Assembly (NCBI GenBank): GCA_973895155.1
Contig: OZ316894.1
Coordinates: 991,968 to 1,055,967, forward strand
Direction of reading: 5' to 3'
From: Marsupella aquatica
Taxonomy: Eukaryota > Plantae > Marchantiophyta
Length of the DNA stretch: 64,000 nt
Shown: positions 1,471-64,000 of the stretch, in pieces
Layout of the letters: each line of letters begins with the position of its first letter
Numbering within the stretch: position 1 is the first letter of the stretch
Made by a program: the position numbers and the translations under genes
The notes under the pieces: model-generated
Database searches by the model: none
What the model saw: only the letters and a program-made list of their open reading frames with translations
Told to the model about the DNA's origin: nothing

Positions 1471-2805
1471 ATCGCGATGGCAAGGCGAGAGGGGGTGACC
1501 ATGGTGAGGCAGGGAGACCCGAGGCGGGGGTCCGAAGGCGCAGGAGACCCGAGGCAAAGCAAGGCGGGGGTCGCGAGGCGGTGGGAGGCGCGGCAGTGGG
1601 AGGGCCAGAGGTGCAAGGGGTGGTGCGGGTTGCGAGGGAGAGCGAGAAAGGAAGGGAGGGCGAGGAGGGAATCGTGGGGGAGAGCCCGGGACTTCATCGC
1701 GGCACAGTTGCCAAGGAGAGTCGGAGTGAGGCAGGCCAGCAAGGTGGTAGTCAGAGCGTCGCGGCGAAAGAAGGGTGGCACGGCGTTGCAGCGACAGAAG
1801 GGTGTCACGGCAAGTCGGGAACATAGCGGCGAGGAGTAGTGGGTCGTCGTCTTTTTTCCCTTTATTGCTTTCATCTTTTTGTTTCCAATTTTTTCACCCA
1901 CCAAATTCAAATGACGACCACGGGAAAAAAGGGCGCAACGTTGTATTATAGTTTCTGATACCTCCCAACAGAGATACCAAAGTTGATCTAACCTTGTCTG
2001 ATCCACAAACTGAATTGACTGGATCCACAAATGCAATATTTGTTCAGTTTAGGTATTCTTTCCTTTTTAGTGGTATGTCACAACCATTTCCTCTTCAATT
2101 GCATCCTCTGTTGTTTGTGATACAACAAACACAAACTATGGCATCGACACTAGCCAAGAGAATGTAATGTCCATTTCATCGTCATTTTAGGGGTTCTCTT
2201 GTCACTTGTCTATTTAGTGGCGGCCAAGTTATAAACTCAGTAAAATTCAAGGGACTTCAAAGCACCACAAATCAATAAAAGAACCCATATAAGGTTGTTT
2301 GGCCATGATAGACAAAAACATGACATACAAGTCATTTTATAAAGTGCAAAAACTTGGCATAGCAGTCAACAAAGTAACATTGTACCCCTCCAGTCTAAAC
2401 ATGCTAACCATTGCATAAAAGGCTAGAACACTATGGGTGCCAGGTCTCGGCCCTTCTCATGGAAATTGTCCCTGCAACATTGGTATGGAATAAATTAGCA
2501 TAGAGGTAAGGAAGGAGATACCCTAATTTACAAGATGGATCCATTGCAAACTATACGTTTTCTAATAATAAAAATCCTGAACAATTTTTCACTCACATGA
2601 GATATGCTAGCCGAGGTCTTATATGGAGGTCTCACTCCATATGCACGCTGACTTTATGTGGACACAATACTTGGGTGGTACTGTCTCCACGGGATGCCAT
2701 GAAATCATCCTGCAACAAAACTGAGTATAATTAGAATTATGATGAACACACCTTATATCCACACATTTTCTTGTAGTAGTCATAATTATTGAATGGATTT
2801 TTACC

Positions 2806-36098: not shown

Positions 36099-37340
36099 CC
36101 CCACCTCATCAAGCAAGACTTTCTTCTGCACTTCATAATCCAAGATACTGCCTGTTTCGGCTGGTTGCATGCACCTCAGGAGAGACAGGTCTATCACAGG
36201 TACGCTCTCACCATTCAACGCATCGGTGTACTCATCATGTCTACTCTTGGGCCGGAATTCAGGACTGAGGACGAATGCCGGGTCAATCTTCAAACCACAA
36301 GTGCCTGCAGGGACTGGGGATTCTTCCAGGTCCTAAACCATGGCGTGGAATCGGAGACGATTTGGAGCTGGAGATGAAGGAGTTCTTTGCGTTATCACCG
36401 GAGGAGAAGAGGAGGTTGGGCCGGAGCGAGGGGAATCCCACCGTGGACTACTTTGACAGTGAGGTGACGAAGCATGGGAGGGATTGGAAACAGGTTTTCA
36501 ATTTCGTGCAAGGGAGGATGGAGATGCCGGCTGGCCATGATGGCCACTTCAAAGAAAGGAACACAACGTTAATCAGGCTGAATCATTACCCGGCTTGTCC
36601 CAGCCCGAAGCTGGCCTTGGGAGTGAGCCAGCACAAGGACGGTGGAGCATTCACGGTGCTCTGGCAGGACCAAGTCGAAGGCTTACAGGTGAAACGGAAC
36701 GATGGCGAGTGGATTGCTGTGAAGCCTCGCCGGGATGCTTTCACCATCAACGTCGGCAATCTATTTCAGGTCCGGACCTTTCCTCATCTCAGAGATATCG
36801 AATGCATAATAGATAATGAACGACACAATTGAATACTCCTTTTTCTGAGCCATTTGCTGAGAGGATTTACTGGCTGTTTGCCCCCAATTGAAGAGGCCTT
36901 ATGCTCAGAAATGTTAGTCAAAGCCTCGAGAAAGACAACGTTTTTCTTCTCTCGTTTGGTGAGGGGGGAAGAGTACACATACTCCATAAAGTGACAATGC
37001 TCCGGCCTTGGTAGATATGTCATCTTAATCATTTCGATTGATGTTACTGTACCAAAATAGCTAAGATACAATATGTTATGGGATTGATCCCTCTCAAAGG
37101 AATTATCTCACAACCACTGTAGCTTTCAAGAGACGGTGCAATGTGCAGGTGTAGAACAACGACTTGTTTCATGAGTGTGGAGCACTGGGCATTGGTGAAT
37201 GAGCAGAAGGATCGACATTCAATACCTTATCTCTTCGGCCCTGCCCACACCACGAGTGGTTCCCTGTGCCTGAATTGCTTGATGAAGAACATCCGGCCAA
37301 GTATACGCGTTACAACTGGGGCCAGTTCTTGAAACAAAAT
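36099..37340 (+). pseudogene. 2-oxoglutarate/Fe(II) dioxygenase (DOXC) pseudogene with an inverted 5' segment
   Basis: + strand: SACRDWGFFQVLNHGV..EFFALSPEEKRR..YFDSEVTKHGRDWK..IRLNHYPACPSPKLALGVSQHKDGGAFTVLWQDQVEGLQV..NVGNLFQ | intron | V*NNDLFMSVEH..RHSIPYLF. The N-terminus (KIDPAFVLSPEFRPK..VPVIDLS..LLDEVG) is on the - strand at ~36099-36299. Frameshifts, a stop and an internal deletion are present. Confidence 0.88.
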
Positions 37341-38766: not shown

Positions 38767-41451
38767 TTAGATCTTTAAAGAGGGCTTATTTCTTCGCAGG
38801 TCAGCCACTGCTGCATCTCTCAACAGAACCACATCCACGGCACCAGAAACTAAGTGATAGCCCCGTTTGAACAATGAATCTGGAGAGCTCTCCGGAGTTG
38901 CAAACCCTGCTAATAACACCATTCCCTGGCGTGAAAGAATCTTTTCCTCTGCATGACAGAACAGCAAACGAGCTTGTGCATCACAAGCAAAGCACAGCTG
39001 ATTAAGCACTACGTCACCCAGGCTTGATTCCAGCCTTGGACCCAAATAAAAGGAATTTTCAAGTCGGTTGGATTAACAATAAGAACAAAAGATTCACAAC
39101 CAACATAGGTTTGATACGAAATCTTACTGTTATAATCAAGGTATGGATCGCCGAGGCTAGCTCCAAAGTCTAGCCCACCCATTTGAATGCAATCTACTCC
39201 GTCCACCCCTGCGATCTCTATAATATGATCGGTAGCTTCCATTGTTTCAACCTAGTAAACATCAGCAATTGAACCGTAGTTAGCCTCAAATATTAACATA
39301 GGTATTTATCTGAATAGAGAGCTCCTCCGGTACTATTTTTCCCTCCCGAGAAACTAGTGGTGACAATTGTCCAATGATGGGACTAAACCGTAGACTAAGG
39401 ATGACGGTACTGAGCTATGGGAGTTCACACTTTGATACCAAATACAGGTTGGATTAGATTTGTAGTATGTACGTTTTGTTTAAACATTTTTAGTTTTTAC
39501 TGTGGTGATGGCTGAATGTGGAGCAAAATAAATTGCCATCAATGACCTGAGAAGCCATAACCTCACTTGACTTATTCCAAAATTTCCACTACGGTTATAA
39601 GTGACATTCTGTTTGAGAGATCCGAAAAACATATGAGTTAGATCCTCTCCCTACTACGAGAGCCCGAAAATAGCTGGAGTAAAATCTGTTTTTTTTTTAA
39701 CTTGGTAGGCTTGGCGGGGGTTTTCTTCCCTTCTCATGGCCAGAATTCCTTTGTTTGTCGGTGTTTGTACTATAGGAGCTCAAATCTGATCCTTTGTAAG
39801 CACAAAACCTCATACGCTGTACCGTTTGCAGCAATCACGTACTGTATCCCAACCGTTTCCCACTAGACACCAGAGAATGGCATAACTTCAAGGTTTAGGA
39901 GTTTAGAATCTTAAGAGAATTACAGAGCATAAGAATGGTTTCGGGATTATGAATGCAACTTCACTGGACTGCGTGTGATATTCACCACACATATGATCTT
40001 CAAAACGTGTGAGAAGCACAATTGCCTTGACTGACCGTGTGACCTGAAGCAGCTTGATCATGAGACAGAATCTGGAAGGATGCACCAACCTGACATATTA
40101 CGAAGAGCTCTTCCTCACACCGATCTATGTAGGAGGCATCCAGACCATAGTGTGAAGCCCTGCTGACCACATGACGAGATCCCCTTCGAATTCCACCAGG
40201 TGGGTATCTGCACAGAGCCACTGCATTTCTCGCCGCTTCCTCGTTCTCAATCATGGAGAACATCAATCCGGCAGGCCCCATATCCAGCGCCTTGTTGACG
40301 AGAACAGGATCATCACCAGGAAGGCGAAATATGGCTGGCGTGCCTGTTGACGCCAAGGCTTGCAACACCGGGAGAGCGGCAAAATTGTCCCCAGGGAACA
40401 ATTGCCCCAAATCTACCACTACGAAATCGTAGCCCGCCCAGCCCAAAATCTCTGCGACGACGGTGGAAAAGCTGACCAGAAATGCTCCATAAAGTTTGTG
40501 TCCTGCTACAAGTTTGGACTTCAAAGATGTACACGTGGATGAAGGGGTAAGAGGAGCAGCTCGGGAAGGAGGAGGGGATACAGCAGCAGCTAAGTTATCA
40601 TGAAGACCTTCACTTGTCACACTTTCCCCCAAGCTCGCCCACCTATGAATTGAGGGTGATGCAGCGGCAGGAGAGGCTCGAGAGGATGACGGAATTGCAG
40701 GGGATTTGACTTGCTGCAAATCCACAACTTTAATGCTTTCCCTGAAACCCCTCGGCTTTTGGAAAGATGGGGATGCATCACATGAAGGGGACTTCACCAG
40801 CAGCACATCCCCACCTCTTATGGTATCCCTCAAGGTCCTCTCCCCTTGGTCAGATGGTGGCGCGTTGACTGTAGGGGAATTAGGGGTCCTGGCCTGCTGT
40901 ACCTCTCCACTTCTTACGCTGTCCCTCGAGCTCCTCTCCCTCAAGCTCGTGGGCTCTTGAGATGTTGGTGATCCATTTATTGACAAGTCCTTTGCCTGCG
41001 GTAAATCTCCAATTCTTCTACTTTCCCTCAAGCTCCTCTCCCGTTGCAAAGATGGCGAGGAAATCGCTGAAGGGGAGTTGGCCGGCTGCACATCTCCGTT
41101 TCGTATGCTTTCCCTCAAGCTCCTCGCCCCATGAGATGAAAATGACGCATCAGCTGAAGGGGACTTCACATCTCCACTTCTCCCATGATCCCGCAAGCCC
41201 CTCGCTTCTCGAGATGATAGCGAGGTAGCAGTAGCAGCAGCAGCAGCTCCAGTAGCTAGGGAAGAAGATGATGGGGCTGAAGGTGAATTGGGCTGCAAAT
41301 CTCCACTTCTTTCGTTGTCAGCAAAACCCCGCCTGGCCGTCGTGGCAGCAGTTGGGAAGTGCTCCAATTTGGACCCTTGAGCGAAACCACAAGTACTTGG
41401 GCGGGTTGGTCGCTGAGTTACACCACCGTTGCCCTCCAGAGCTTTGGACAT
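38767..41451 (-). CDS. HpcH/HpaI aldolase/citrate-lyase family protein with a long Ser/Pro/Arg-rich repeat N-terminus; exons 41451-40090, 39251-39128, ~38972-38767
   Basis: SLKSKLVAGHKLYGAFLVSFSTVVAEILGWAGYDFVVVD..PAIFRLP..KALDMGPAGLMFSMIE..CRYPPGGIR..RASHYG..ICQ | VET..IEIAGVDGVDCIQMGGLDFGASLG | AEEKIL..LAGFATP..RGYHLVSGAVDVVLLRDAA. GT-AG junctions. The last acceptor is uncertain. Confidence 0.9.
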
Positions 41452-43155
41452 CTCCTAAACCCCCAAACCTCCTCGTTACGTCTCTTCGTCCCTCCACCTC
41501 GTCGTCGTCGTCGTCGTCTTCGTCAACCCATCTGTGTCTTACTGCTGAGTTGGAAAGTGGATGGTCTGCTGTCTGCTGACCGACAGAATGCAAGCACTTT
41601 ACTGAAAGGCAAACGGCACCCTTATGGACAGAATATGGATAAGAAATAAGGTTTGTTGGATCAAAAAAATGAAGTGCCGGTGCGTGGAACCTAACGCCTA
41701 TCACAGTACTCCTGTATTTATCACACAGGAACGCCAAACCGTGGTATGCATAACACGTCTTCCATTCAGGGAGACTGACGGATACTTCTGGTTTATTCAG
41801 GGTATCGCTCAATCCTGATGAAAAGTTGAAGGTTGACCTCCGAAGCTTTCCGTTTGGTAGGGGAAGTGGCGACAGGATCTCTGTCCAGATGACAGAAATT
41901 GGGTAGATTTTGAACCAGTCCAGGGAAATCCTGAAAATTGAGATGTTCCCAGCGGAGCTAGAGATCTTGTCTCAGTTGAGGAGGTTGGGAAAAAAATTCA
42001 GGTGAGAGCTTTTCGTGCACCTGAGAGAACTTGTGAGATTGTGTAATTGTGCTCGACCTCGTCCTTTGCAATTTTAGCTGCTAAATATTTGAATAACTTG
42101 ACGTCTGCACCTTTAGAATCTTTGTTGTTCCTAAACACTTGGAATCTCGTTGCTGCCAAGAATCGAGGGGAACAGAGGGCATCCGAAACGTTCCTGCCAA
42201 GGACTAGAATCTTGGGGAAGGAACATGCATCCCAAACATGGAGAGGCACAAATAGCAAGGGGAAGTGATGTGTAGACTAGTCATTTAGTGCAACGACCAA
42301 TATCAGCGTTGTCATTACATCCTGCCTTAGCATCAGCTTTCAAGAATTTGTGGTAGGATCTTGCTCCATGAGAAGAGGAGAAATTCCAGCTGAAGCCTAC
42401 GTCCTTTCTCTGATTTGCCTCATCCAAAGGTTTTACTTTGAATTTTTTTAGTTTTTTAAATAATATCCTACTGTAATACAATCCCGGGCCAATAACCCCG
42501 ACCCACTGCTTCGCTTTGCATCATCCACAAGTTTTTCTTTGAATCGACTCCAAAAAGTGACACCATGGTGCCACAAAGCCTAGTGACTAGTCTAGGCTCA
42601 TGTTCCATGCCAAACACTACACAAAAAGCCTTCCGGCTCAGTCCTTGACAAGAAGTGGGTGACTGTAGACTCTAAACAATGCAAGCTGCAGAGTAACTAC
42701 TGTATCTGTTCTTATAAACTAACTCCGTGATGCTACATCTGGGTGGTTCAGAGTATCTATTAAATAACTGCAGATGCCTCTGGGCTCTGGTCCACCACAG
42801 GGTCCTCAATACACTTGAGACACTGCTAAGGCAAGTATTTTCACTAATCTCCTGGATACAAGAACAGGTACCGGAGTGAGAGTGATAGAAAAGAGCACCT
42901 GAGCAATTCCCACACTGTTCTGTGCTGGATAGTCCTACACTTCAGTTTATCGTCACGATTGGAGGGTGAAAAATTAAGAAGACACTCACTAATCAATAAA
43001 GACCAGCCACTCCATCCAAAGAAGGAAAAGGGTTGACAGAGGTGGTACGAAACAAGCTCAAATGAACTCATGAAAATGATTTTAAGCCCTGCAGAATGAA
43101 GGGCAAAACAATTGTCATTGTACAGATGACTGTTTTGAGAGACTCGTTGAAAGCT

Positions 43156-45225
43156 CTACTCTTCAGCTATCGGGAAAGCTGATCCGATGCAGTTTCTGCC
43201 GAGAGGATATACTTTGACGTTGACATAATATGGCCCCAGAGTCACGTGATTATCCTCTGCTCCACAGAAATAACATAAAGTATAGAGAGCCATCTCAAAC
43301 TCTGGACTCACCCCAATCAGGGTGCTACTCACTGCTTTCAGGATGCCGTTCCATTTGAATTGCACAGTTAGAAGCTGCGAGTGGGAATCAGGCTGCAACA
43401 CGCAAGAAACAGCATATTCATATATACATGCTCTTAGCTCTTCCAAAGTATGCAAGCAAACTTTTGGCATGATCGAGGCAATTCTACGAAAGTTTTGTCT
43501 CCTAACAATAAAGATTCGTCGTTTCCCCCTCTATACCTCCATAAGCTGACACAGGGTACACCGAATAGCTACTTACGCAGAGACTGTCAGAAGTAGCTTG
43601 CTAAAGATGGCAATGTTTCAAAACACAATCGCTCCAAAACTGAAATTATAGACCGAAAAAACTCACCATTGGATCCCCTCTTCGTCTTGGCATGATGAAC
43701 CCTTGGTAGTCCAAATGGCCCTTGGCTTCCTCCAGATAAAACTGCAAAACGGAAGGACTGTGTCATGAACCCTTGGGAGATGAAATCTGATGATCTAGGG
43801 TCCTGGCTGATGGTTTTAAATTCAATACCAACATCGTTCCGATTCTGATCCAGTTTCTCTTATCGACGACAGCCGTAATCTGCCAAGGTAAGGGACATCG
43901 AACCTTACGAAAAGAGGAAGGTCGAATTGCTGGTGAAAGCAATGGACGCCAGGAGCAATGAGAACGGAAACACAGCCATAGCACGTAATCATCCAGTCAT
44001 GGTTGTAAGCACTCGACCGGCGTTCGGGGAAATTGGTCAAAAAGCTAAAACAGATGAACCATGACAACAACTTCAATGCTGGGTGTAGTGAGCCTCATTA
44101 CCTGCATCCAATTATGCATTCCTGAAACTTCAGTCTCACCAGTATTCCTATCATGCTTGACCTCCCCAACGAACACATGCTCAAAAGCCGAAGAAGAGCC
44201 CCTCGTTCCACCTCTGTTATACGGGTCAAACCACAGAGAACGCATGGCATTCTTGAACTGCTGCTCATCTCCCTGGATAACATTTTTTGCTTCCAGATAC
44301 TTGTGAATATATTTCAGAGGTGCTGTCCTGCTTATCTCCTCAATGAAAGCTATCTCTTCATTTTGCTCTTGAGAAGATCTCTTTTCAGCAACATGCTCAT
44401 CCGGATTGTAATTATCCAGCAATGCGTAGAAGCGAGCGTACGTGGGTCTTTGAAACACACTTTGGTCCAAATGACTAAAAAGGGAAGCATCCGCGTGATC
44501 CTCCTTTAAGTAAACTTTCGTGCCGTTACCGACGTCAATGGCATAGTCCCTCCCCGGCGTCAAACGATTGATATCCAATTCCCACAACCTGCTGACTGCT
44601 TTGGACACATCGCTTAGCTCCTCCCTTGTAGGTTCCACATTCACCGTTGATGTGCTCACATGTTCTGCATATTGCTGCTCGCTAGCAGGAACTTTGTAGC
44701 TCTGACGGATGTCATCTGTCAACTGTGGGACAATCAGATCAAAGAAATCGATTATCAGCTAAAACATTTGGGCACCCTCAGATATCGGAAGCTGGTCAAA
44801 TAGATCCTCTGATGCTGAGATGATCAGCTGAAATAATCAGGATAACCATGGGAAACATCGACGTGTATGACAAAATAAAGAAAAATCAACCAATGTACAG
44901 TGATTATGATACGGAATGTCAATAGGTAGCTCAAGTAACATTTCAAACACCAAATACACCACATATCACGAGTTTACAATCTCCAGAGCGCTATCAAGGA
45001 GGCCTACCAATTTGAAAATTCATCTGTGAGCCTAAATCTTCTTGGCCATCTACCACGAATACTGGAAAACTCCTGCCTCGCTAATGTGTATCTCTTGCGG
45101 AAGCCTTCTCAGAGGAAGTTAAGATCGTTTTGTCAGCTTGGTTGTAAAGGAAAACTCACCTGATGAAATTTCGCACTCACCATTTCTTTCACTGTCTTCT
45201 TCAACGCGCCAAACATGCCTTTCAT
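43156..45225 (-). CDS. ENDOU: Poly(U)-specific endoribonuclease (EndoU/XendoU family); exons 45225-45181 (or 45160), 44722-44102, 43741-43667, 43392-43156
   Basis: RLWELDINRLTPG..LF..RPTYARFYALLDNY..SSAFEHVFVGEVK..VSGMHNWMQ | FYLEEAKGHLDYQG | TVQFKWNGILKAVSSTLIGVSPEFEMALYTLCY. The catalytic His, His and Lys motifs are present. All introns are GT-AG, phase 0. Confidence 0.94.
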
Positions 45226-50855: not shown

Positions 50856-51578
50856 ATAGGACCAATCACAAAATATAGAGGGAAATCAGACTTCTAAAAT
50901 CTTTGAGGATCAAGAAACCAACAATCCGGATGTAACTCACAAACAAGACCTGCTAAACAGTGCTAAACAGAAAACATCAGAGACTAGCCAGGAATGGCAA
51001 AGCGAGAGGCAAAAGCCCTAGAAAAAGAGCTGGAAATCCCTAAGTTTCGTGCGGAGGAGTCACAAGGGAAGTACACGAGCTGTCTGGGAAACTCGATGAT
51101 GCACTCTCCAATCCGCCAAGAACCTAATCATAAAGCAGGTGAATGGTGACATTGTGGGTCTAAGGTCTGAAATGACGAAACTAGAGCAAAGAGCACTTAT
51201 GGGAAAATAAGCTGAGTTCACCTGACAGGGGAAATTTAGCTTGCGGGCGTGCAAGGGCTGGAGTTTGCTAACTGTTCCAATACCTCCTGATGCTTTGTCT
51301 TTTCCTTCGACCTGCTCCTGAACTTCCAAAACGAGTAATCTGCAGTCCTGCTACTGAGCCCAACGAAACAAAACCCAAAAATTCAGCCGTCAATTTCCTG
51401 CATTCTCTTCTTCGACAATGGTTTTCTAAGTGGATGCCTTTGCCAGTAGGATTCAACTTCTGAGTGTGTCCCAATTCTATATTATAAATAAACAGATAAA
51501 GAGGCTTACCTGAAGTTCTCCTCGACTGCTGAACTTAATCTTCGATAGACCTTCTTCCAGCAAAAGCAAGGATTGTTC

Positions 51579-51856
51579 GAATATACAATAGTCGTTGCAG
51601 AAACTGCAAATCTCCTGCGACATTCCAATATCTTGCTACTTATACAGGAGCAGCGCTTGCGGAATACTTTATGTATTGTGAACAGCACACTCTTATTGTT
51701 TATGATGATCTTTCAAAACAAGCTCAAGCTTATAGACAAATGTCTCTTTTATTGAGAAGACCACCAGGCCGAGAAGCTTATCCAGGGTATGTTATTTATT
51801 TACATTCTCGTCTATTGGAAAGAGCAGCAAAATTAAGTTCTAATTTAGGTGGAGGT
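51579..51856 (+). pseudogene. atpA: Nuclear plastid DNA insertion (NUPT): internal fragment of chloroplast atpA
   Basis: [10 protein letters not shown](fs)[81 protein letters not shown] is the plastid-type variant, codons are AT-rich, and there is a frameshift. Confidence 0.93.
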
Positions 51857-52520
51857 CGAAGGAGCAACGAGAACCACGATTACCTCCCGCTTTCGCATCA
51901 AAAGACAACCTCACAAGTTCACACAAATCAGGCCTTCTTCTCAATCCGCCAAAGTAAACCAGGTCCCTACAGTACCTAAGGTCCGCCAGTTATGCAAATC
52001 GGGTCTCTCCTGTACCCACGGCAACGTCGCAGCTCGAGTACTTCAGGTAATCGACAATCTAATTTGGCAATTTCACTCGTTTTGATAAGCTGGCTGCGGT
52101 GCTGTACAGAAGCAACTGAGGGATTGAGCTGCACGGAAGCGTCAAGCGCGCGGTACGTTCAAAGTCCTCTCCGCCACAACGTACGTCCTCCTGTTCTTCG
52201 CTCCGTTTCTGTGTCTCTTGCTCTTTCCTTGACTTCTCTATAGGGACTTCGTTTACACAAACAAAATGAGCAGAAACGGCGAGCACGTCTCCCTGAGGGC
52301 ACAGCCCTGCCACTATGTTCTCTTCCCTGCGGACGGACAGACACACGTTTCCGTTCCTAGAGCTCTCGCTATGCTCGGGAATGGTTTCTGTGCATTCAAC
52401 TCCAGAGGTTTATACATGGAAATGCCGGGCCCCAAACTTAAACTCATGACAACTATGCTCTTCACGGTATTACTTACTAAGTTTATTAAGCTTGCGGAAG
52501 AACAGGAGGACATACGTCGT

Positions 52521-52825
52521 GCCTAATTTGTCGTGATACCCCACCTTGTACTACACAGCAACACGTTGACAATCATCCTTACTACTTTTATCTCAGACGC
52601 TAATTCTGTTGGGACTTGGGAGTGCTGTACCTATTGCTGCGGCTTTGCAGCGGTTACTACGGCGCCATTGGCGGAACCAATCATTAAGCCGCCCTCTCTC
52701 CGGATTCGGATTCAGCACTACAAGAAATTGCACCAAAGACCCCGCATGGATAAGTCTTTCAATGAGTCAACTAGATTTGTGCACATAAGGGTGGGGCAAA
52801 GTAGAAAATGCCCTTCACATTCTCC
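52521..52825 (-). pseudogene. Partial, diverged duplicate of the hydrolase gene segment 54620-54913
   Basis: Shared GCCTAATTTGTCGTGATACCCC..GGCGGAACCAATCATTAAGCCGCCCT..AAAATGCCCTTCACATTCTCC, including intron sequence, with indels. Confidence 0.88.
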
Positions 52826-54131
52826 GCTTCTTCATCTCCGCTTATCAACTATCTAATCGTCAAGTCCCAATGGCTTATCTACACACAATAGATTTGGATA
52901 TGAATAACTGTACAGATTTAAGCCGACTGTGAAAAATTGAAAAAGAAGTACAGTGCTTCGAGTGCAAGCTGGTGTCCATCGACGAATAGCTCGTTAGAAA
53001 GAGTTGTGCATTTCGAGACACTTCATCAATCGTTTAGACTTGCTCTCGGGCGTTCTTCGACCAAGTGTTACGGGCAAGAAGTTCCAGAGTGAACGTCTTG
53101 ACCATTCTGTCACCTCAAGCTTTTTTGGTCCAAGCCCAGACTTCGAGTATTTGACCAACCAAGCAGATCATCGACTGACCGTCACAGATCGGTGCTCGAC
53201 ATTAGTATGCGCTTGCCCGAAGTTGGCCTACCTAAAGACCTTGAATATGCTCTTTCACAGTCACACAAGATTAGAATGCGGACCTAGCCAGAATAAGTTT
53301 TCTTGCTTATTTTCATTCTCTTTTTGTCTGAATGTGCTAATCTGTCACATGAACGGGGTCTTCAGTGACATCCCTTAGTCCATTCGAAAAATTGAACATA
53401 TCAGTCCTCAGCACTGAGCTGACTATCACGCACAGAAGGGAGCTTAATTGTCTGCCATCCATAGTAAAAACTTTAATTCAACGAGTCTGTCAAGAGTGAA
53501 CTTCGCCTTATCAATTTTCCATTTTGAAGTTAGACAAAAAGCAGGAAAATGCACTTCCTCCTAGAAGTCGAAGCAACTGTTGGTAACAACCAATATTCTA
53601 TTGCTACGATAGAACAAGGCGCAGGGCGCCATATAAGTAGGGAACGATGGATCCCTGGAAGAGGAAGAGATCAACGGATATTTCGTAGTGACCTAGAACT
53701 AACAGCCTAGATGGCTACCGCATATCACGCATACTGGGCAACGTGATGTAAGGCAAGTAACGATGATCAACAAAGATCACACTAGTGTCGTCTACGGTAG
53801 GCTATGTGAAGAACAAGCAAGCAGGGGTTCATACCCAGATGATCAGGGCTTGTAATGAATTCAGACGACCTGTACTAAAGCAGATCGGCACCCTGGGCGC
53901 AACTTTGAGACAGCAATTACATGAAAGGCACCATTGCACAAATCACGAGGACGCTTTGAACCAACGCACTAACAATTTGATACAAGCACCCAACTTTCGA
54001 ATCACCAACAGACCCTAGTAGACGTATACAAGATCCAGATTCACCTAAAAAAGAATTTAAGCAAACTATGCATAATTGGAAGCTATTGTTAATGTCAACG
54101 GAACCGGTCTTCATCCTCGTCCTCATCAGCT

Positions 54132-55320
54132 CTAATATTTCTGCCAAAACACTCCACCAGCACATTTGCTTGTCGCTTCGAAACCAGCTTTTGCGAGGCC
54201 ACCAGTCAGATGGCTCTCCATTTCTGGGAACTTGCTAATCTTCTGTAATTGGTCTATAGTTATCCAAATTGTCTCCAGTTGCGGAAGTTGAATCAAGATG
54301 TTGTTGACAAGTTCATTACATGCACATTCATTACATGCACTCTCAATTCTGTCAGCAATTAGCTCAGCAGACCCGCATGCTCTTGCCGGTATTACTTCCT
54401 CAATAAGTTTAGTAAGCCTGCGGAAGCTGCTATCTGTTTCACCTCGAAGTTTAGAAATACCAAAATGATCTGTGTTACTGGTATAATAGTCGTCTACATC
54501 GTAACGGGCTGATCCTTCCTCAACTACATGAGTTAACTTACCTTTGCACAACAAAGCCTGCACACGGGAAATATGAGGGTCAACTAAGTCCACATTCAAT
54601 CATGTGATAAAACAGTCAAGCCTAATTTGTCGTGATACCCCATCTTGTACTACACAGCAACACGTTGACAATCATCCTTACCATTTTTCTCTCGGGCGCC
54701 AATTCTGTTGGGAGTGCTGTACCTATTGCTGCGGCTTGGCAGCGCTTACGTTGACGCCATTGGCGGAACCAATCATTAAGCCGCCCTATCTCCGGATTCA
54801 GCACTACAAGAAATTGCACCAAAGACCCCGCATGGGGTAAGTCTTTCATTGAGTCAACTAGTTTTGTGCCCATGAAGGGTGGGGCAAAGTAAAAAATGCC
54901 CTTCACATTCTCCAGAAAGACCTTGCATCGATCCGGGTCACGCAATACCATTCCCTCTATAAGTTTCTTGATAATCAGCCCCGCAAACCCGTGTCCAACT
55001 AGGACAACCGGGCGATTCTCTGCATAAATGTCAAGAATGTCATGTCGCAGATTCTCTGCAATTTGAAACAAGTTCATGTGACCAGCAGCGTCTGTCTTCC
55101 GTATGGCACCATCATAACAGACATACCAGATTCTGGCACCAGGGTACTTGGGCTTAAGCAGAACTTCTGGCCAACAAACATTCGGAGTTTCACTCAAAGT
55201 CCACGATTGCACATGAGGTTTCTCGTAGCCTTTCCATAGAACATCGTGAAAGAAAAGAATTTCTGCTTTCGGGACATCCGGTGAATTGGGAAACATGTAG
55301 ATTGAATTGTTGCACTGCAA
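54132..55320 (-). CDS. SERAC1/DUF676-like alpha/beta-hydrolase domain protein; exons ~55320-54682 and 54557-54132; 5' end uncertain; may be a pseudogene
   Basis: EILFFHD..SWT..VCWPEVLL..PGARIWYVCYDG..AENL..RPVVLVGHGFAGLIIKKL..FLENVKGIFYFAPPFMGT..RLNDWF | VVEEGSAR..TDHFGISK..SF. GT-AG intron, phase 0. Confidence 0.75.
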
Positions 55321-57451
55321 ACAAAGAGTTACTTTTCTTGATCAATAATAAACACTCACCAATCCTAAGAGAGGCATCTGCGTCGAATTTCCACATTCCC
55401 TAAAATTGTCAAGAAGTCGCACAGAGACACAAGCCATGAAACACAAAAATTACAGACATAGGAGATCTGGAATATAGAACCAATCGAACCCGTGTGAATG
55501 GGGTGCCACTTACCTCTATTGGGTCCGGGATTGGACTTTGTATGGTGGAAGTGGAGGCCATTGAGCATGGAAAACAGTAACGAGGAACCTGATGACGTTC
55601 TTCTCTCTAGCAGGGAATAAGGGTTCCATTTTCCGCACAAACGATCATTGATCTTTGGCTTGCCAGATGCTATAATTCAGTTCACTTTCAAATGAATTTT
55701 GAAGATTTCTTCAAGAGTCAGGCCAACCAGGCAAGAAGAATACCGTCAGGGAGATGAAGATGAGCACATTAGATCTGAATTCCATGGTCCACCTTCGGAC
55801 ACTCCTGCAATACAAACCATCACTTGAGAAACGTCCTACAGTAGGTCTCCACTTTGTCTAAACGACTTCTGATGTGTGGAGTTCAAGTCTGCGAAACCCG
55901 TTGTTCATTCGAGACGATCGATACCTCATTCGGGACACACTAGTGTATTTCTAGGCTAATGACCCGTACTCTGTAATCTCTAGCTTACCTTGGAGTTCTT
56001 GAGAACGTATCCCAACGGTCTGTCCGCTCTCAGAAAATACTTTCAAGTTCCATCAGCTGTACACCATTCTGGCTCTTTCGATCATCTGGTCACGGCTGCC
56101 CTCTGCTCCTGTAGCACGACTCCACGGTGCCTTCTCTGATGATGGTTTTTTCCTTCATAATGAAACTCTACGGTAGCATTGGTCAGCTCATAAACGAAGT
56201 CGCGCGCATTAGCTTCGCCGGATATGGCTTTGGCTTTAAAGAGTCAATCTGCAGCCTGCCAATGTCCTATCAGATACGTGAGTATGGCAGGCCAGCCTCC
56301 TCCCTCGCTCGACTTTGTTTGACTGCGTTCTCGAATCCCATTCCGCCCTTGTGCAAAAACACTCGGTGTGGGAAGACACTGTCGTCATGAAACAAGCACT
56401 CCACCCCTCAACTCTTGAAGCACAGCACACACCAAAGAATAAAAGAAAGACTGATCCCTGCAGTGGACCAAGGGGAAGTCCGAATTGTGGGATTGGCGAG
56501 TGTGCGAGTCGCCAATTCGTAGGACACTGCTTGCATCAATTCAAGACCTAGAAACTGTGCATCTCGAATCAAGGAATCCTCTGACCTCACCCAAAGGTAA
56601 AAAAAGTCCTCGGACGGAGGTGGGCCAGGTCTCGTTCACAAGGGTAGTACGGTACACACAGCAAATATTGCCAACCATTAGAGGCCAATTGGTCAATAGT
56701 TGCGCCTCTGGGCTTCAATGGTTGGATATGCTCGGTAGATCAGTGACGAGACTTCAGAGATACTGTACTATGAAACACGTGACAAGTCTCTGGACACAAA
56801 AGTCGATGTGAGCCTGGTCCTCGCTCTGGAAAAAGCTGTTGGGAAAACAAATTTTATGTGTATTTTGAACATATCTAGGCGCATCAATACTGTAAAGCTT
56901 TGCCAGATTGATGCGTTTTGCTGCCTAGATTTGCATGCTGAGTAACTGAATTCTGATGAGTGCCACGGAATGAAGGAATTAACTGATTAGGTCTGTTCGA
57001 GAGGTATGTCGAGCTTGCTTCGTCTGCATTCCAAAGCCAATTTCCTTTGCTCAAGGACAAGGAGAGTAGGGGGCAATTGTACTTCATCGCACATGGTGGA
57101 TGGTTTGGAAGGGGACTAGGTGAAGAAACTTTTCCATTTTCTATTCGTGACCAGTGGAGGAAAGATGTGCTGTTGGACAGGTTTTCTGAGTGTAGTTTGG
57201 CCACATATCTAGAAACGGTGAGATTAGGACTTCAGTTCGAACAAGCTTCTTCATCTCCGTTTAGTGTTACCTTCTAAACCTTGCGGCTATAAACGTGGAT
57301 CAGGTTGCACTGTATTGGACGTCTGGTGAACCAAACCTAAACTGACAACTGCAGCAGCTTCAATTCGCTAAGATTATGTTTGGTGCTTGGCAGTCCCTAC
57401 TAGGATCCCTTGCTTGTTGATTCCATATTTCAGGTACGCCGAATCCAGCCA

Positions 57452-57880
57452 ATTGCCTTAGATCCACAAGAGTGAAGATGTCTGAGTCTCCAATGCTGTC
57501 AAATAGCTCCTCTGGCCGTGGCATGGGATACCTATCCTAGGGTGTGACCAGGTTCAGTGGCTTATAATCCCCAACATGTGCTTCTCTGTCCACAATCCAC
57601 TAGAATCCTTTTTTGCTGGCATCACTATACGTAGCTGCTGCAAAATCTGATGTAGATGGCTGAATAAAACCAGCTTCATAGAGCTCTTGGCACCTCTCAT
57701 CCACCAGCTGTCATTCATGCTTACTCAAACGGTGTCTCTACCTGAAGATAGGTGTTTCATCAGCCAACTCAATGGAGAACTGCATAGTCTTGCACTTACC
57801 CAAGTCCTTCATAGAGAAAGCAAACACGTTCTCATGCTTGAGGAGCAAATTCAGCAGCTGGTCCTTCTGTCTTTTACTTA
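57452..57880 (-). pseudogene. Ty3/Gypsy reverse transcriptase, N-terminal part
   Basis: QLLNLLLKHENVFAFSMKDLGKC..IELADETPIFR*RHRLS..ELYEAGFIQPSTSDFAA..VMPAKKDSSGLWTEK..DYKPLNLVT..DRYPMPRPEELFDSIGDSDIFTLVDLRQ. The match ends before YxDD. Confidence 0.9.
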
Positions 57881-58244
57881 GGTGGTTGCCCATGATGAAT
57901 GTGTAGTTGGCAACACTAGGAATCGGACCTGATGTACTCGTGCTTGAAGAACCAGAAGTGCTAGCCTCTTCACTGTCCAAGTTGCTAGCATGCTGCTGAT
58001 AATGTGATGAGGCCTCTCCAAGGCCTGTTGTACCTGCTGATCTGAAGTGGTCCACACCATGAAACTCAGAAATAATGTCAGCCACATTACAAGGGATCTC
58101 CTCCCCCCCAACACTTGGACTAAAGTGGTGAGTGTTGGACAGAGGTAAGTGCACCTGGTCTGGATGCCATGCAGCAGCACCATGGAGTGGTAGGGCTAGA
58201 ACTCCTGATGCTGAATGAATGTACATCTGAAAAAGGATGCAACT

Positions 58245-59192
58245 GACCAAAAGCCAAGTGAGAGCATTAAGATCCATTACCTTGCCAAGTAAAGCATTTC
58301 TGGCCAGCTTGGTAATTTTGGTGTGGCCTGTAGTACCGGGTTGGAAGCCCATAGCCCGTTCTCTCTCCTCTTGGGGTTTAGGTTCATCCCATGTACCGGT
58401 AGAATGTCAATAAACCAGGCCAGGACCATCATCTTGAAAAGCATGTGCACCTGGAAAGGACACAAATGTAGGCCAAGCAGCACGGGGCTCTCCAATGGTA
58501 TGGGCTGGATACCAAGGGGCTGGCTCTTGCCGTGTAACTGGTTGGCAAGAACTGTCAGGATCCAAAATCTGGTCCACTGTGAGGTTAGTGTCCCTAGATG
58601 TGTGGTGAAGAGCTAACTCCAGCAAAGAAAGAGGTGCAAGGTTAGTCCAAAAGTTACGAAGACAATGTGCATAAGAACCACAATGCACTGCATCAATGAG
58701 AAGGGGTGGCCCCAAGTAGTGCTGGACCACACTAAAATCCTCTTTGACCTGTGGACATTGGTCAAACTGAGATGGAGTATTCTCGATTATATAACCAACA
58801 ACAGGGTAAAGGGATTGAGCCCAGGTGAGAACCTGAATCAATGTTGTGAAAAGGCCAGAACGAGAATCATGTAGTTTAGTGCCGTGACCAGCAGCTATAA
58901 ACCCTTGGCATTCCCAACTAGCTATGATCAAATCAAGGGAGCCAAGAAGGGTTAAGTGTCGGTGCTAGACAAGCTGGATATCTGGAGGGAAGAAAGAAAA
59001 TGCAAACTTCCATGCACTGTGTGGAAACTGCTGGGGAAATCGCTCTGAAAATTCCAGCAGATGGGAGGCAGCCACTTGCCTTGCACTTGGATCAATGTCC
59101 ACATAGATGTACTACTTCACCACCATGCCGGACTGTAGGAGAGCTTCCAGGCCTGTAGAAATGTCACCAAAAAGCTCAAGCAATGTAAGGCC
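58245..59192 (-). pseudogene. C5 cytosine DNA methyltransferase domain within retrotransposon pol
   Basis: Motif I LLELFGDISTGLEALL, II YIYVDID, III PPDIQ, IV DLIIASWECQGF, V DSRSGLF, VI IIENTP, VIII GSYAHCLRNFWTNL, IX ERERAMGFQPGTT, X RNALLGKVMD. All lie in one frame, interrupted only by point stops. Confidence 0.9.
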
Positions 59193-59498
59193 ATCCGGAG
59201 CAAGAGTCCATGTAATTGGTCCGCTCAAGATTGGGGCTACTGGCTATCCATTGTGCTGCCCAAGGTCTTCAAACTTGTGCAATGCAACCACCAAAGGTCC
59301 ATGGCCTGGGCTGCTTGGAGCCGTTGTACCACCTCTGGTTGATGATCCACGTTGCTGGAAAGTGCTGCTATACGTGCAGCAGCATGTGCAGTAGCCACCT
59401 CATCGTCATCCTCCTCAATCCAATCCTGCAATGGGTGGTTGACATAGGTAGTTGTGTGCACTTCTTTCAACACACAATGATGAGCCATGGGTGTATGG

Positions 59499-59805
59499 CT
59501 CGGGGGCCTCAATCCAAGGGGTGTCTCATATCACGCTCGAAGTTTTGGAGGAATAAACATCCTAAAAGTTAAGTCAATAAAGTTTTTTTTAGGAATTTTT
59601 TTACCCCTAACTTAATAGAATATTCCAAGAATATTCCTATATTTGATTTTAAAAAACCCTATGATTCTTATAATTCTCAAAATTGGATTAAAATAACCCT
59701 AATGTTCTTCAACAAAAATTTAAAAGTATTTCACTAAACCCAATAAAAAAACCCTATACTTATTCGCGCGTGATGGGTCGGAAGAAAAGAAGTGAGGACC
59801 CCGGG
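59499..59805. mobile_element. 307-bp MITE (hAT-like, 8-bp TSD) nested in the retrotransposon pol
   Basis: TSD GTGTATGG at 59491-59498 and 59806-59813. Imperfect 13-bp TIRs CTCGGGGGCCTCA / TGAGGACCCCGGG. AT-rich interior. Removal restores the frame LHGAHTPMAHHC. Confidence 0.85.
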
Positions 59806-59813
59806 GTGTATGG

Positions 59814-60270
59814 GCACCATGTAGATCAAGGGGAATGTAGCCCAAGTGTGAGCCATCAGTATGCCAATCAACTCTGTAGTATGCATGCTCATGCAAATTG
59901 TCAATGGTGAAACCTGGTGGGAACAAAGCCTCGTGGCCGGCCATTGAGCACATCATACGTAGTGGCATTTGTAACCAAGCATCTGACTGGGAAATGAAGT
60001 TCCTAATCTGTACCGGGCTGTACCTCCATTAAAAGTGAGGGTGTGTAAAGTAGAACTCTCACCCAGTACGTCCTCCACAGTGCCACTAGTATGTAGTTTG
60101 AATGTGCCACCTGGATTGCTATAAATGATCAATCAACATTCCCATCTTCTTGGCAAACTCAATGCCCAAGATCACTGGTTGAGCGCTTGTGTCTAGCATG
60201 ACCACCTGAGGAGTGTGACCCTCCAACTTGACCGCTGAATTCCTGTTGTCAACAATGGCAATGGTGGTGG
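59814..60270 (-). pseudogene. Retropepsin-like aspartic protease region of pol
   Basis: VKLEGHTPQVVMLDTSAQPVILGIEFAKKMG contains a D(T/S)G-like motif with G>S. It sits downstream of gag. Confidence 0.7.
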
Positions 60271-61373
60271 AAACTGAAGTCCTATCGCTAGGCACCACTT
60301 TTGGCAAATGATGAGGTACCTTGTGAAGGGAGTTAGTGTCCACGGTCTTTCCACTCAATAGCATAGTTAGGAAAGATGGAACAGCATGACCAGAATCAAG
60401 TGTAGCTCTAGCCACACAATCTGCAACAAAACTGTCATCTCTACCATTGGAAATTGGTACTGGGATAGCCAAACCAGTGGAAGCATGTAATGGAGAAGAA
60501 GAAGGTCCAGTATGTACATGAGATTGGACCTCCAAAACCGGTGTCATAGGGGCTGATGAAGAATGCAGTGAGCCCTCTAGCGCTCTAATGACAACTCTAG
60601 CATCCAATTGTAAATCATGATGGCAACTGAAAAGTGGAGTTGTAAGAATCTGTTGTGCCATACCGGAGGTGAAATGCTCAAGCAGCTTAGGAGAAACAAC
60701 ATCCTGTGAAATGTCAGCAGCACTTGGTGGTGGAATGGATGTGGCTGCAGCTCCCCCCCCCCCTCGCCAACAAGGTGCGCTCTTCAGCAAGTGTGAGTGA
60801 CTGAAAAGATTGGGGCATAACAGCCCGAGCTCCCCTAGCTCTAGTCATAGGACCACCAGCAAGACCATCAGCCTGTACAATGCGACATGTGGGAGCAGTA
60901 CGGGAGGCAACACTGACCTACTAGTAAGCAAAATAGGATGGGCAGAATGAATCTGAAAATTCTGCTGTAAGGCCAGGCTGTGTAGCAGAGGATAGCACGT
61001 GCTCACCCATATGAGCATCAAATGGCAAGCCATAGAAAGAGCGAGTTAGAGGTGTTGAACTGTCAGTGGTGCCTGGACCAGGGATGGGTTGCATGTGACC
61101 AACAGGTTGAGAAGGACCAGCAGAGGCTGGTGACTTACCTTTGATGTTGGCAAGTTGGGCACATAAGGACTCAACTTCATGAGTCAGAGACTGGAGTTGA
61201 GTTGCCTATGCGTTGTGAGCCTCCTTCTGAGCTGGTTGCTTCTGTTATTGCTTGGGTGGTTTGTTGGCACCGGGTGCTTTGCCACTGGAAGAAGGAGCAA
61301 CTGATGTAGTAGGAGCCCTCCTAGTTGGTGGGGGAGTGGAAGCAGGAGCAGGATGAGTGGCCTGCTATTGGAG

Positions 61374-62380
61374 CTACTTCCTCTCTAGGAATTTGGCAAA
61401 ACAAATTGCCTCCACGTGGCCCACTTTCCCGCAAAAATCACAAGACAGGTCCTCAGCAACAATATCACATTCATTAGCCTTGTGATTAGGGTTACCACAA
61501 TAATTGCAAAATAGTAGCATGAAAACAACATGTGCTGGCTTGGGCTTGGAACCATATTGTGGCACACGGGAAGGAGTGGCCAGTGTAGGGGCAGCAGTCT
61601 GGTACCTAGATCTCGGTGGACGTGCAATACTAGCCTCATAATGTGCATGGGCCAACTCAAGTTTCTCAGCAATGTCATAGACATTGAGCAATGTGTAGCT
61701 GTCTCCAAACTCTGAGAATACTTGCTGCAACACTTGCGAATGGAGAGCTGGTGTGCCCTCCAATGCACGAAGATAGTGATGAGCAGCCTCCAAGTCAGTG
61801 ATGCTCTGGGTGTCCTTCTTCAGTTTGAGAAGCCGACGATACATCATCTTCAATGTTTCATCGTGCTGCCTCACAAAGGTGGCCAATTGCATGATTTTGT
61901 CAACACTCTTGATTGGGAATTCCAATTCAAGAGCCTGGAAAACTCAGCCATTGGATCAGCAAAGGCAGGGGAATTAATGGTGGGAGAAATGCCCAATGTA
62001 GCCTGTGCCAAGATAGTGGGAGTAACTAGCGCAGTGGTAGGAACTGGAGTAGGAGGGGAAGTGGCAGGAGCAGCAGCATGGGCTGCAATGGCATTCTGTA
62101 AGACCAATTGTGAGGCTGTCGCAATTGCACTAGCATAGGTAGGGTTAGGCAATTGGGTGACAGCAAGCAGCCGTTGAGAATGCTGCTAGCTCATACACAT
62201 CCAAAGCCTCATGGTGCACATACCGGGCTAGCTACTTAAATGCAAATGCATTTGTGAAATTGCTGCCGTACGTCAACTCCAATTCGTAAATGATAATGTA
62301 AAAAGTGGATTTGAACTCATGCAAAGAAACAGTGCCTGGCCGCCTGCTGAAGTGCTCAATGTGGCCAGATGAGTGGCTGG
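61374..62380 (-). pseudogene. Retrotransposon Gag with two zinc knuckles
   Basis: GHIEHFSRRPGTVSLHEFK..EFP..MQLATFVRQHDETLKMMYRRL.., then CNYCGNPNHKANEC and CDFCGKVGHVEAIC (CX2CX4HX4C). Confidence 0.88.
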
Positions 62381-64000
62381 CATCCATGCTATATATCAAT
62401 GAAGCTGGAATAACCACTGATGCAGAAGGAGAAAAAGGCAAAGAAGCAATAGCAGGCTTTGGGGTAGTGGTGAAGCGACCACCAAATATAACAGAAGGAT
62501 TGCGTGGTGTGGGTGCTGCTGCTGTCTGTTGACGTCGTCAAACTTGTCGAGACTCCAATGAAATTGGCACCAACGGTCGTGGATCACTCTGCAAGTAGTA
62601 CCTGGGTGTCGGTGGCGATGAGCTGCTTTGACTCGGCTCCTCTGCTGACATGCTGCATGCTCACCTGGGGTGCCGATGGGAAAGAAACTGACAAGAAAAA
62701 GGAGTGGCAACCCAAGGCTAGGAAATGAAACCCACAAAGGAAACAAACAATGCGAGGCAGAAATGTGTAAGCGCCGAAAAACCGTCAAAGTCTATGCAGA
62801 TGACATGTGGCGACAGCAAAGAAATCCGGGAAGAATAGGCCCTTGAAAACGTGAATAGGGGCCCCCCTTAAGTGCATACATTGGGCCCCTTTAAAGTGTA
62901 TACGTCGGCCCCGATGTGGTCCCGAAAACTGGCAGCAAGGGTGCGCGTCGGTAGGAAATGAAAACCGGGCCAAGTGGGGACACGGTGCCCTATGCAGGTC
63001 GTCGATGGCAAGGCAAGAAAGAAACGGAAGAAATGACTCAAAAGGAAGGCGAGGGGAAAGAAAAACGGGCCTCAATTGCTCGAGCCCTGCATAGGGCTTC
63101 GTGCCATACGCCCTCCTTATGAGCTCCCAAACTCCCCTCCTTATAAATGCCCTGTAATTTGGGCCTTGTGCGTGGCAGGAGGACTCCCGAGAAGGGAGTC
63201 ATATGTACTCCCCTTCCCCCTTCTTTAATGCTAAAAGTGGGCTCCATGCCCTGCAGAAGGACTCCCGAAGGGAGTTGACGTTAAACCCCCCTCCCTCTTT
63301 AATTCTTCATAGGGCCTCGTGCCCTCCTTTTGCTTCCCCTCCTTAATGTTGTTGGATGGGCTTTGTGCCCTCTTCTTTCCTTGCGCTGCCTTGTGCTCAG
63401 CTCCCCCTCCTCCTCTCTTAATGCTTCATAGGGCCTTGTGCCCTCTCCCTCTCGGCTCTCGCTTGTACTCGCTCCCTCTCCCCTATTTTAAGTGCTGGCA
63501 ACCGGGGGGAAGGAAAGAAAATGGCAAGGGGGAAAGAAAGAAAATGGGTCCTAATCGAGTGGAGGGCATGATGCCCTACACATACCGGCAAGCAAAAGGA
63601 AAAGAAAACGGTAAGGAAAGACTGTCGCCCCCAATGTATACACAAAGGGAGAAGGGCGCCCTACGAACACAGTCGCGAGGCGGCAATAAACCTGGCGTGC
63701 GATGCTTTACGTGGCTTTGAGCAAGAGTAAGGCATCGACCTGCAACCCGTGGCTTGTAGTCAGCCGGAAGGTAGCATTGCGCAGAGAGGTGCAGCCGAGA
63801 AGGGGCGTGCGGCCCTATGCAGACGGCCCCTCCTGCAAAAACATTGCAAAACTGGCCCAAAAAAGGCTCGGGGGGATCACTTCCACGGAAGTGGCACATC
63901 ACGTGCGACGAAGTATAGGCCCATTTAAATGGGTGTGGCAGAAGACTTCCAAAGTTTGGTGGAAGAACACATAGGGCATGTTTTATTGACTGATCGACTT

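Follow-up and report, generated by a model that had tools for sequence, protein, structure and literature searches.

Does the C5 cytosine methyltransferase (DNMT) domain found between the protease (PR) and reverse transcriptase (RT) of a decayed retroelement in this window (the whole stretch of DNA analysed, 64,000 nucleotides) belong to the element, and if so, what might it do there? We consider it rather probable that the locus is a dead, 3′-truncated copy of a Ty3/Gypsy-type family, that the DNMT3-class enzyme encoded in the gag-pol of this family likely methylates the element's own new cDNA, and that the family would integrate by cutting a palindrome in its terminal repeat.

Read along the minus strand, the window copy starts with a repetitive 5′ leader that is diverged between copies (62388-63866; related contigs extend to 63866, and read depth exceeds the single-copy level in four of four runs); this is followed by a frameshifted gag (61374-62387, located by tblastn of the relative P0004) with two CCHC zinc knuckles at about 61508-61392 (PF00098, E=2e-4), a frameshifted aspartic protease region (59810-60340, motif at 60193-60185, 54% identical to residues 1-158 of the Calypogeia protein P0022), the DNMT domain (58212-59192, catalytic Cys at 58910-58908), a DNMT-RT linker in unchanged frame (57774-58211), and the N-terminal part of RT (57453-57773), which contains stops (57740-57738 and 57713-57711) and frameshifts and is cut off before YxDD. 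Matches to gag-asp_protease are present in P0004 and P0022. The leader is interrupted where a second element, with terminal inverted repeats and a very high copy number, begins (63867-64000), marked by a jump in depth and loose ends at 63867/63870, and the 5′ terminus of the retroelement lies outside the window: the initial annotation had placed the element at 57452-62380, but the leader runs on to 63866. The terminus of this second element resembles the end of a nested MITE (59499-59805; 307 bp, 34% GC, imperfect inverted ends), which has a target duplication of 8 bp, possibly 9 bp (59491-59498 and 59806-59813), and is skipped in two of four runs by contigs that join 59489 to 59805. Homology to the relative loci ends at 57453, below which the flank is single-copy by read depth; RNase H, integrase, PHD finger, and 3′ repeats are missing. 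The window copy is a dead fossil, as had been proposed, with three stops in the DNMT frame (59114-59112, 58967-58965, and 58409-58407), frameshifts, the MITE, and the absence of all that follows early RT. The window also contains host genes (XendoU, an HpcH aldolase, and a 2OG-Fe oxygenase); no tRNA genes were found in it.

From 59231 a single minus-strand frame continues across the DNMT domain into RT, in agreement with the initial annotation, which had also reported the SWECQG motif with its catalytic Cys (found) and 18 codons after the stop at 58409-58407 (these lead to the next Met of the frame ending in ETPIFR). A PF00145 match, proposed as a check, is weak for the window copy (E=0.036-0.058, below the curated cut-off), but less decayed relatives pass (P0003 4.9e-9, P0017 4.6e-9, and P0148 5.9e-12). 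The family profile matched human DNMT3A in the PDB at 4e-27, DRM2-type enzymes at 1e-13 to 1e-10, and HhaI at 2.5e-10; and for the predicted fold (pLDDT 66) the best 50 structure ranks were DNMT3 chains only. Judged from its sequence and the fold model, the window domain is an unrearranged, intronless methyltransferase of the DNMT3 class, with a predicted catalytic function; it shares 74% identity with Calypogeia P0022 and 61-66% with the Sphagnum-type P0017 and P0003. Among 67 distinct copies, shared variants other than C-to-T give an N/S ratio of 0.08 in DNMT (9 N, 34 S) and 0.10 in RT (8 N, 21 S), and private variants a ratio of about 0.9: purifying selection acts on the DNMT domain, as it does on RT. 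Comparison of the window copy with Sphagnum-type copies gives a ratio of 0.08, a rough bound only, because dS is saturated (pS 0.74).

We suggest that the DNMT, which shares its polyprotein with RT, would have the new cDNA as its substrate. Self-methylation of cDNA by an element-borne DNMT is itself a published proposal (PMC5890265, in its accessible text). The domain may instead have been kept for another role, either in trans methylation of host or target DNA or in a non-catalytic binding to DNA or to host factors, which we find doubtful. According to the same text, the K. nitens (Klebsormidium nitens) domain produced no DNA methylation in yeast, which favors such a role, but human DNMT3B failed in the same assay and the authors judge the result inconclusive (PMC5890265). 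Of 150 representatives, 75 have Glu and 34 have Pro in the position before the catalytic Cys, and this Pro-to-Glu change in half of them, a C-terminal PHD finger that suggests chromatin targeting, and the presence of DNMT at two different pol positions likewise fit a non-cis role; but the catalytic and SAM-binding residues are all conserved in the family (across 21 diverse members the Cys, the Glu-Asn of motif VI, and the His-Arg-x-Arg of motif VIII show little or no variation), and the shared polyprotein also argues for action in cis. The window copy itself departs from the family at catalytic-motif residues in motif I, motif IV, and the first Arg of motif VIII. CpG observed/expected is 0.22-0.34 in the element vs. 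0.68 in the flank, a depletion that host methylation would explain equally well.

The window copy has neither end, and all terminal structure was read from Sphagnum-type relatives that are about 66-68% identical to it in DNA. Fuller copies with RNase H and integrase, which the initial annotation had anticipated, exist among these relatives, but the ordinary LTRs it expected do not: full-length elements (8.6-11 kb) have the structure A1-body-B1A2B2, with A alone at the 5′ end, B-A-B or B at the 3′ end, and not two equal complete LTRs. Their termini are those of canonical Ty3/Gypsy elements (TG..CA ends and a duplication within 4-6 bp): among 11 copies with both ends, eight have perfect 4-bp target duplications, two match at three of four positions, and one has none. 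A polypurine tract lies immediately before B1, and the site right after A1 has its complement within A, 30-34 nt past the TATA box, giving by complementarity a predicted self-priming site of the Tf1/Tcn1 kind (recognizable in 28 of 35 A1 copies, with pairing at 12-15 of 15 positions; the partner lies 30-34 nt after TATA in all 27 copies retaining the box). In all 20 loci the B1|A2 spacer measures exactly 2 bp (GC, AC, GT, or AT), and with GC the junction reads GACAGCTGTC, a perfect palindrome; the A2|B2 joint is shortened (resected) in 8 of 20 and clean in 12 of 20. The last 40 nt of B hold five CpG. The single-B form makes up 9 of 27 distinct 3′ ends, and no A-B-A-body-B copy was seen among 28 distinct 5′ flanks. 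An element of the chlorophyte order in a bacterial MAG (L161) ends in GACA-GC-TG at the contig edge and has no 5′ end.

These features suggest the following route. The RNA would start in A, 30-34 nt past the TATA box, and prime itself as Tf1 RNA does, and the repeat made by RT would therefore be B+A, in a linear cDNA of the form B-A-body-B-A. The left B|A palindrome (CA, 2 bp, TG) would then be cleaved by integrase, which would produce two processed ends at once. End-joining would unite the two blunt cDNA ends, either within a circle or once strand transfer has taken place, and B would thereby come to lie at the right end. A-body-B copies would come from one-repeat circles, and could equally derive from later recombination between B1 and B2. 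With its two palindromes, a symmetric two-repeat circle should yield A-B-A-body-B copies as well; the count of 0 in 28 stands against the model, so that palindrome cutting needs a bias that it leaves unexplained. The same count, together with the clean A2|B2 joints, favors a different origin of the split repeats, by template switching during reverse transcription, with integrase acting on ordinary linear DNA ends and single-B copies as later recombinants. This is possible but in our judgement improbable: with priming after A1 and the polypurine tract before B1, the adjacency of the A end and the B start is not on the copied template, and the resected A2|B2 joints contrast with the invariably exact B1|A2 junction.

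The family has a stable domain order, gag-PR-DNMT-RT-RNase H-DDE integrase-PHD in Sphagnum-type loci, which includes the canonical PR-RT-RNase H-integrase order that the window copy has lost. PR precedes DNMT in 74 of 80 loci and RT follows it in 72 of 80 (no locus shows another order), and DNMT, RT, and RNase H share one ORF in the open relatives P0003 and P0148; the proposal that DNMT is an integral pol domain kept across the family is thereby borne out, P0003 (DNMT-RT-RNase H) and P0004 (gag-PR-DNMT) being single open proteins. DNMT precedes RT in Calypogeia, Sphagnum, Closterium, and Mesostigma, and follows RNase H in chlorophyte relatives. In quick trees, both unrooted, the window copy groups with Calypogeia as its sister (SH-aLRT 95) and does not fall within the Sphagnum-type clade, and the streptophyte and chlorophyte orders separate with DNMT (91; 31 chlorophyte-order rows of 97 dropped) and with RT-RNase H (100; 41 of 133 rows kept). 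The element's own tree makes a liverwort host likely, and the predicted extension to land plants holds at the family level, with proteins assigned by name to Sphagnum and Calypogeia fissa on contigs several megabases long. A non-liverwort bryophyte host, or sideways movement of the family between bryophytes rather than descent from an early green-plant element, is unlikely: only one liverwort species is among the named matches and the unrooted trees have no host DNMT3 or K. nitens rows, but the sister position to Calypogeia and the agreement of the two trees on the streptophyte-chlorophyte split speak against it. No K. nitens-named match was found among the protein search results, and IMG/VR matches (4 of 64 parts scanned, 80 loci kept) were weak and partial, covering no more than about half of the DNMT domain at 25-46% identity. 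That the DNMT is a passenger (a host-gene fragment, a separate insertion, or an assembly or contamination artefact) is very improbable and largely refuted, in line with the initial annotation: the window copy's PF00145 score is weak, no contig covers the whole stretch, and the contig across 57453 extends 30 letters into the element, where the bridging rule asks for one more, but the domain is intronless, in frame, at a conserved position in 80 loci and named algae, similar in read depth to gag and RT, and under purifying selection.

Beyond the initial annotation, then, the methyltransferase belongs to the DNMT3 class, and the family, which has no ordinary LTRs, ranges across streptophyte and chlorophyte algae. 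The data point to a DNMT-Gypsy clade across chlorophytes, Mesostigma, Closterium, mosses, and liverworts; given this spread and the selection seen in land plants, an element-borne de novo methyltransferase likely existed at about the time when land plants arose. More tentatively, and with somewhat less than even confidence, we propose an ancient Gypsy clade of all green plants with DNMT3 at either of two pol sites, tRNA-free self-priming, and integration by palindrome cutting, in which the DNMT may mark the CpG cluster by the palindrome, deciding which of the junctions is cut or shielding chromosomal copies; end-joined or circular cDNA would then be the normal route, since integration would cut the element's own repeat. 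LTR circles and end-joined cDNA are usually regarded as dead ends; if the model is true, they would be the productive route, and the terminal structure offers a testable account of DIRS-like repeats in a retroelement with a DDE integrase. High-copy bryophyte families put both questions within reach of sequencing and simple enzyme assays.

Several known systems share parts of this design. Two candidates for the repeats and the element type were rejected: Troyka requires CG..CG termini and a 3-bp duplication and is confined to animals (PMC12440569), in contrast to TG..CA and 4 bp in the relatives; and Phygy has an NCGN target preference and a short element filled by pol (PMC6317226), whereas none of the target duplications read in the relatives is NCGN and their elements are 8.6-11 kb long. 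REM1 and Gypsy-7a_cRei of Chlamydomonas have the PHD finger in common, and DNMT is unmentioned in the accessible parts of the papers citing them. Compared by description, Tf1/Sushi elements and plant Tcn1 chromoviruses share the Gypsy order and a primer binding site complementary to the element's own predicted RNA 5′ end, with no tRNA site (PMC6317226), but here a PHD finger replaces the chromodomain, DNMT is added, and the repeats are permuted rather than paired LTRs. DIRS elements of the PAT/Ngaro/TOC1 type have the A1..B1A2B2 layout; they and SymbioDIRS-Dnmt3, whose Dnmt3 has been shown to methylate CG (PMC5890265, accessible text), differ from the DDE integrase, TG..CA ends, and 4-bp target duplications found here. 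PF00589 (tyrosine recombinase) is absent from the domain lists of the family protein searches, and locus L019 has no minus-strand frame of at least 150 aa and, outside pol, no spare room for such a gene. Foamy virus integrase, according to the accessible text of PMC1180852, can cut a palindromic 2-LTR circle junction into processed ends, similar to the cut proposed here at CA..TG; but that junction arises from joined cDNA ends, whereas here each repeat encodes the junction, and integrated copies are permuted. The closest system is KnitGypsy-Dnmt3 of the alga K. nitens (de Mendoza et al. 2018), in the searched literature the only described case of a Gypsy form with DNMT3: the accessible text reports an intronless Dnmt3-class domain in the Gypsy pol ORF with RT and RNase H, under purifying selection, and repeats called DIRS-like (two A flank the ORFs and two B flank A2), and gives no priming or integration model (PMC5890265). 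Our family resembles it in the class of the intronless domain, the ORF shared with RT and RNase H, the purifying selection, and, by description, the A1..B1A2B2 repeats of the Sphagnum-type relatives. The capture of Dnmt3 by Gypsy is treated there as an event of the K. nitens lineage (PMC5890265, accessible text), whereas the elements described here occur in land plants and in both streptophyte and chlorophyte algae.

The element in the window lies on the minus strand at 57453-62387 and carries a gag with two zinc knuckles, a protease (PR) motif, a methyltransferase (DNMT) domain and the start of an RT. On re-reading the sequence, the coordinates of the initial annotation, its SWECQG motif and its count of 18 codons between a stop and the next open reading frame were all correct; the DNMT was also rightly placed in the frame of the RT, since a single frame runs from 59231 through the methyltransferase domain into the RT (stops read as X). 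The copy is dead, as had been claimed from its stops, nested MITE and truncated RT: five stops interrupt the DNMT-RT frame, small indels occur at several places, methyltransferase motif residues are changed, a 307-bp MITE flanked by an 8-9 bp duplication has inserted, and the element is truncated at 57453. Its stops are absent from the family's read contigs. Two related, very high-copy inverted-repeat elements (the MITE, at 59499-59805, and another at 63867-64000) are inserted in the retroelement, whose 5′ terminus lies beyond the second, which begins at 63867. One contig of read run X4 skips 2836 bases at window positions 60581-63418, possibly a non-autonomous deletion derivative. The junction at 57450 looks lineage-specific: in organism B, both runs show the single-copy flank (56430-57450) carrying on beyond 57450 into sequence that does not resemble the element; in organism A a contig extends to 57482 without differences.

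Elsewhere in the window, an ATP synthase alpha fragment (51539-51979; PF00006 match, very high read depth) is likely an organelle insertion, and one segment of an ORF that weakly matches alpha/beta-hydrolases is locally duplicated, the copies lying about 2.1 kb apart (52516-52856 and 54615-55341). Host exons encode a 2OG-Fe oxygenase (36269-36832), an HpcH/HpaI aldolase whose N-terminus is repetitive (40000-41454) and an XendoU nuclease (44045-44758).

A PF00145 match, proposed as a check in the initial annotation, is present in the window copy but weak (Pfam, E=0.036-0.058). All 12 PDB sequences matched by this single copy (12/12) are DNMT3; a 21-member family profile matches DNMT3A at 4e-27 and HhaI at 1e-10, the predicted fold of the domain matches DNMT3A/B, and the catalytic set is retained in the family's DNMT.

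The DNMT is an integral pol domain of the element, as first supposed. Among proteins of related elements, P0003 is a single open DNMT-RT-RH protein (820 aa), P0004 a single open gag-PR-DNMT protein (1214 aa), and P0148 combines the knuckle and protease with DNMT, RT, RH and integrase. The order is conserved in a metagenome scan, from whose 517 confirmed stretches the best 80 were retained: PR precedes DNMT in 74 and RT follows it in 72, gaps being mostly contig ends. These loci were chosen by a DNMT query and are therefore blind to DNMT-less copies, a bias offset in part by summed read depth, in which DNMT is similar to gag and RT in four runs; for example, run X2 gives depths, not to be read as copy numbers, of 1355-2454 for DNMT, 1967-3152 for gag, 2036-3064 for RT and 14 for the flank. 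When shared and private variants were separated among 67 distinct copies, private variants had ratios of 0.78-0.94, near neutral, and shared non-C-to-T variants 0.08 in DNMT and 0.10 in RT; counting C-to-T changes as well brings the shared values to 0.40 and 0.34. Only one of the 63 copies covering the domain is stop-free.

The family reaches land plants, which the initial annotation had proposed, with named matches in Calypogeia fissa (74% over 249 aa) and in mosses (four Sphagnum species plus S. compactum). P0003, encoded in metagenome locus L019, shares 78-94% identity with named Sphagnum proteins; judged by sequence, the fetched loci are Sphagnum-type. The DNMT lies between PR and RT (the first order) in Closterium and Mesostigma, and between RNase H and integrase in Scenedesmus, Haematococcus, Monoraphidium and Chlamydomonas eustigma; Pyramimonas has a DNMT plus an RNase H match. 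A representative search gave 635 clusters at E<=0.001, and 85 of the best 150 of these showed another retroelement domain besides the DNMT: 14 follow the first order and 71 the second (DNMT after RNase H). Two trees built by a quick method and left unrooted, one of DNMT (66 rows) and one of RT-RH (41 rows), each split the two orders (SH-aLRT 91 and 100, respectively) and group the window copy beside Calypogeia (SH-aLRT 95). The trees are without host DNMT3, K. nitens and DNMT-free Gypsy sequences, so one capture with relocation and two captures both fit.

All terminal structure comes from relatives of the window copy. Full copies are 8.6-11 kb long and laid out as A1-body-B1A2B2, where A and B are terminal repeat units of about 290 and 175 bp; they start with TGTCA and finish with GACA. 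The 4-bp duplication is perfect in 8 of 11, matches at three of four bases in 2 of 11 and is absent in L047; a G-run immediately precedes B1 in 11/11. The integrase carries both the DDE residues and its zinc motif, and a PHD finger comes after it. There is no tRNA-type priming site after A1; in its place, 28 of 35 A1 copies (some being one locus in two assemblies) have a site that pairs at 12-15 of 15 positions with sequence lying 30-34 nt past the TATA box, and the remaining seven are without the search motif. The B1|A2 joint has exactly two bases in 20/20 loci; GC as this spacer creates a 10-bp palindrome, and AC, GT and AT spacers are likely deamination products of GC. Of 20 A2|B2 joints, 12 are clean and three lack two bases; the other five are changed in some other way or resected further. 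B stands alone at 9 of 27 distinct 3′ ends (leaving out L015, L068 and L076, which are cut or disrupted); among single-B copies with a 5′ end, the 4-bp duplication is kept in L057/L073 and L005, and at three of four bases in L058. At L004:9150-9190 only the final few bases of B follow A2, possibly paralleled by Gypsy-7a_cRei of Chlamydomonas, whose left LTR is described as lacking its final 8 bp (PMC9940879). A chlorophyte-order element in a bacterial MAG (L161:10236-10362), likely algal contamination, has a G-rich tract; its contig stops at GACA-GC-TG, resembling the moss junction and equally compatible with an ordinary short LTR.

Priming after A and a plus-strand start before B would make the copied repeat B+A, and the linear cDNA therefore B-A-body-B-A, of which the integrated form would be a permutation. 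By the simplest route, integrase would cleave the left B|A palindrome into two CA-ended ends with 2-nt overhangs, and the blunt cDNA ends would then be united by end-joining; one-repeat circles would yield A-body-B copies. This palindrome-cutting route agrees with the B1|A2 junction being fixed and the A2|B2 joint variable. Counting against it, the A-B-A 5′ form was seen at none of 28 distinct flanks, drawn from 32 loci that extend 700 nt upstream, so cutting would have to be one-sided. The DNMT likely acts on element cDNA, and any connection with the CpG cluster next to the palindrome (40 nt with 5 CpG, a density matched by 1 of 208 body windows) is speculation. Tentatively, and at somewhat less than an even chance, we envisage an ancient, green-plant-wide Gypsy-type clade with DNMT3 at either of two places in pol, self-primed and integrated by palindrome cutting, with end-joined or circular cDNA as its normal route and a DNMT that may mark the CpG cluster. 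Among known elements, the RNA of Tf1 primes itself, DIRS elements integrate without target duplication, and LTR circles are usually taken as dead ends.

Overall, the initial observation is confirmed and its interpretation supported. In the literature searched, mostly outside subscription papers, theses and Repbase, we found neither a DNMT3-bearing Gypsy element in land plants or chlorophytes nor a description of the palindrome-cut integration route; the comparison drew on accessible portions of PMC5890265, PMC12440569, PMC6317226, PMC11244446, PMC12885004, PMC2774666, PMC9940879, PMC6673714 and PMC1180852. The closest comparison is with KnitGypsy-Dnmt3 of Klebsormidium nitens, made with the text of PMC5890265, whose figures and supplement may bear on domain order and other taxa. 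The window family agrees with it in all features open to comparison and, from sequence, appears to work in the same way; the two likely derive from the same ancestral element.
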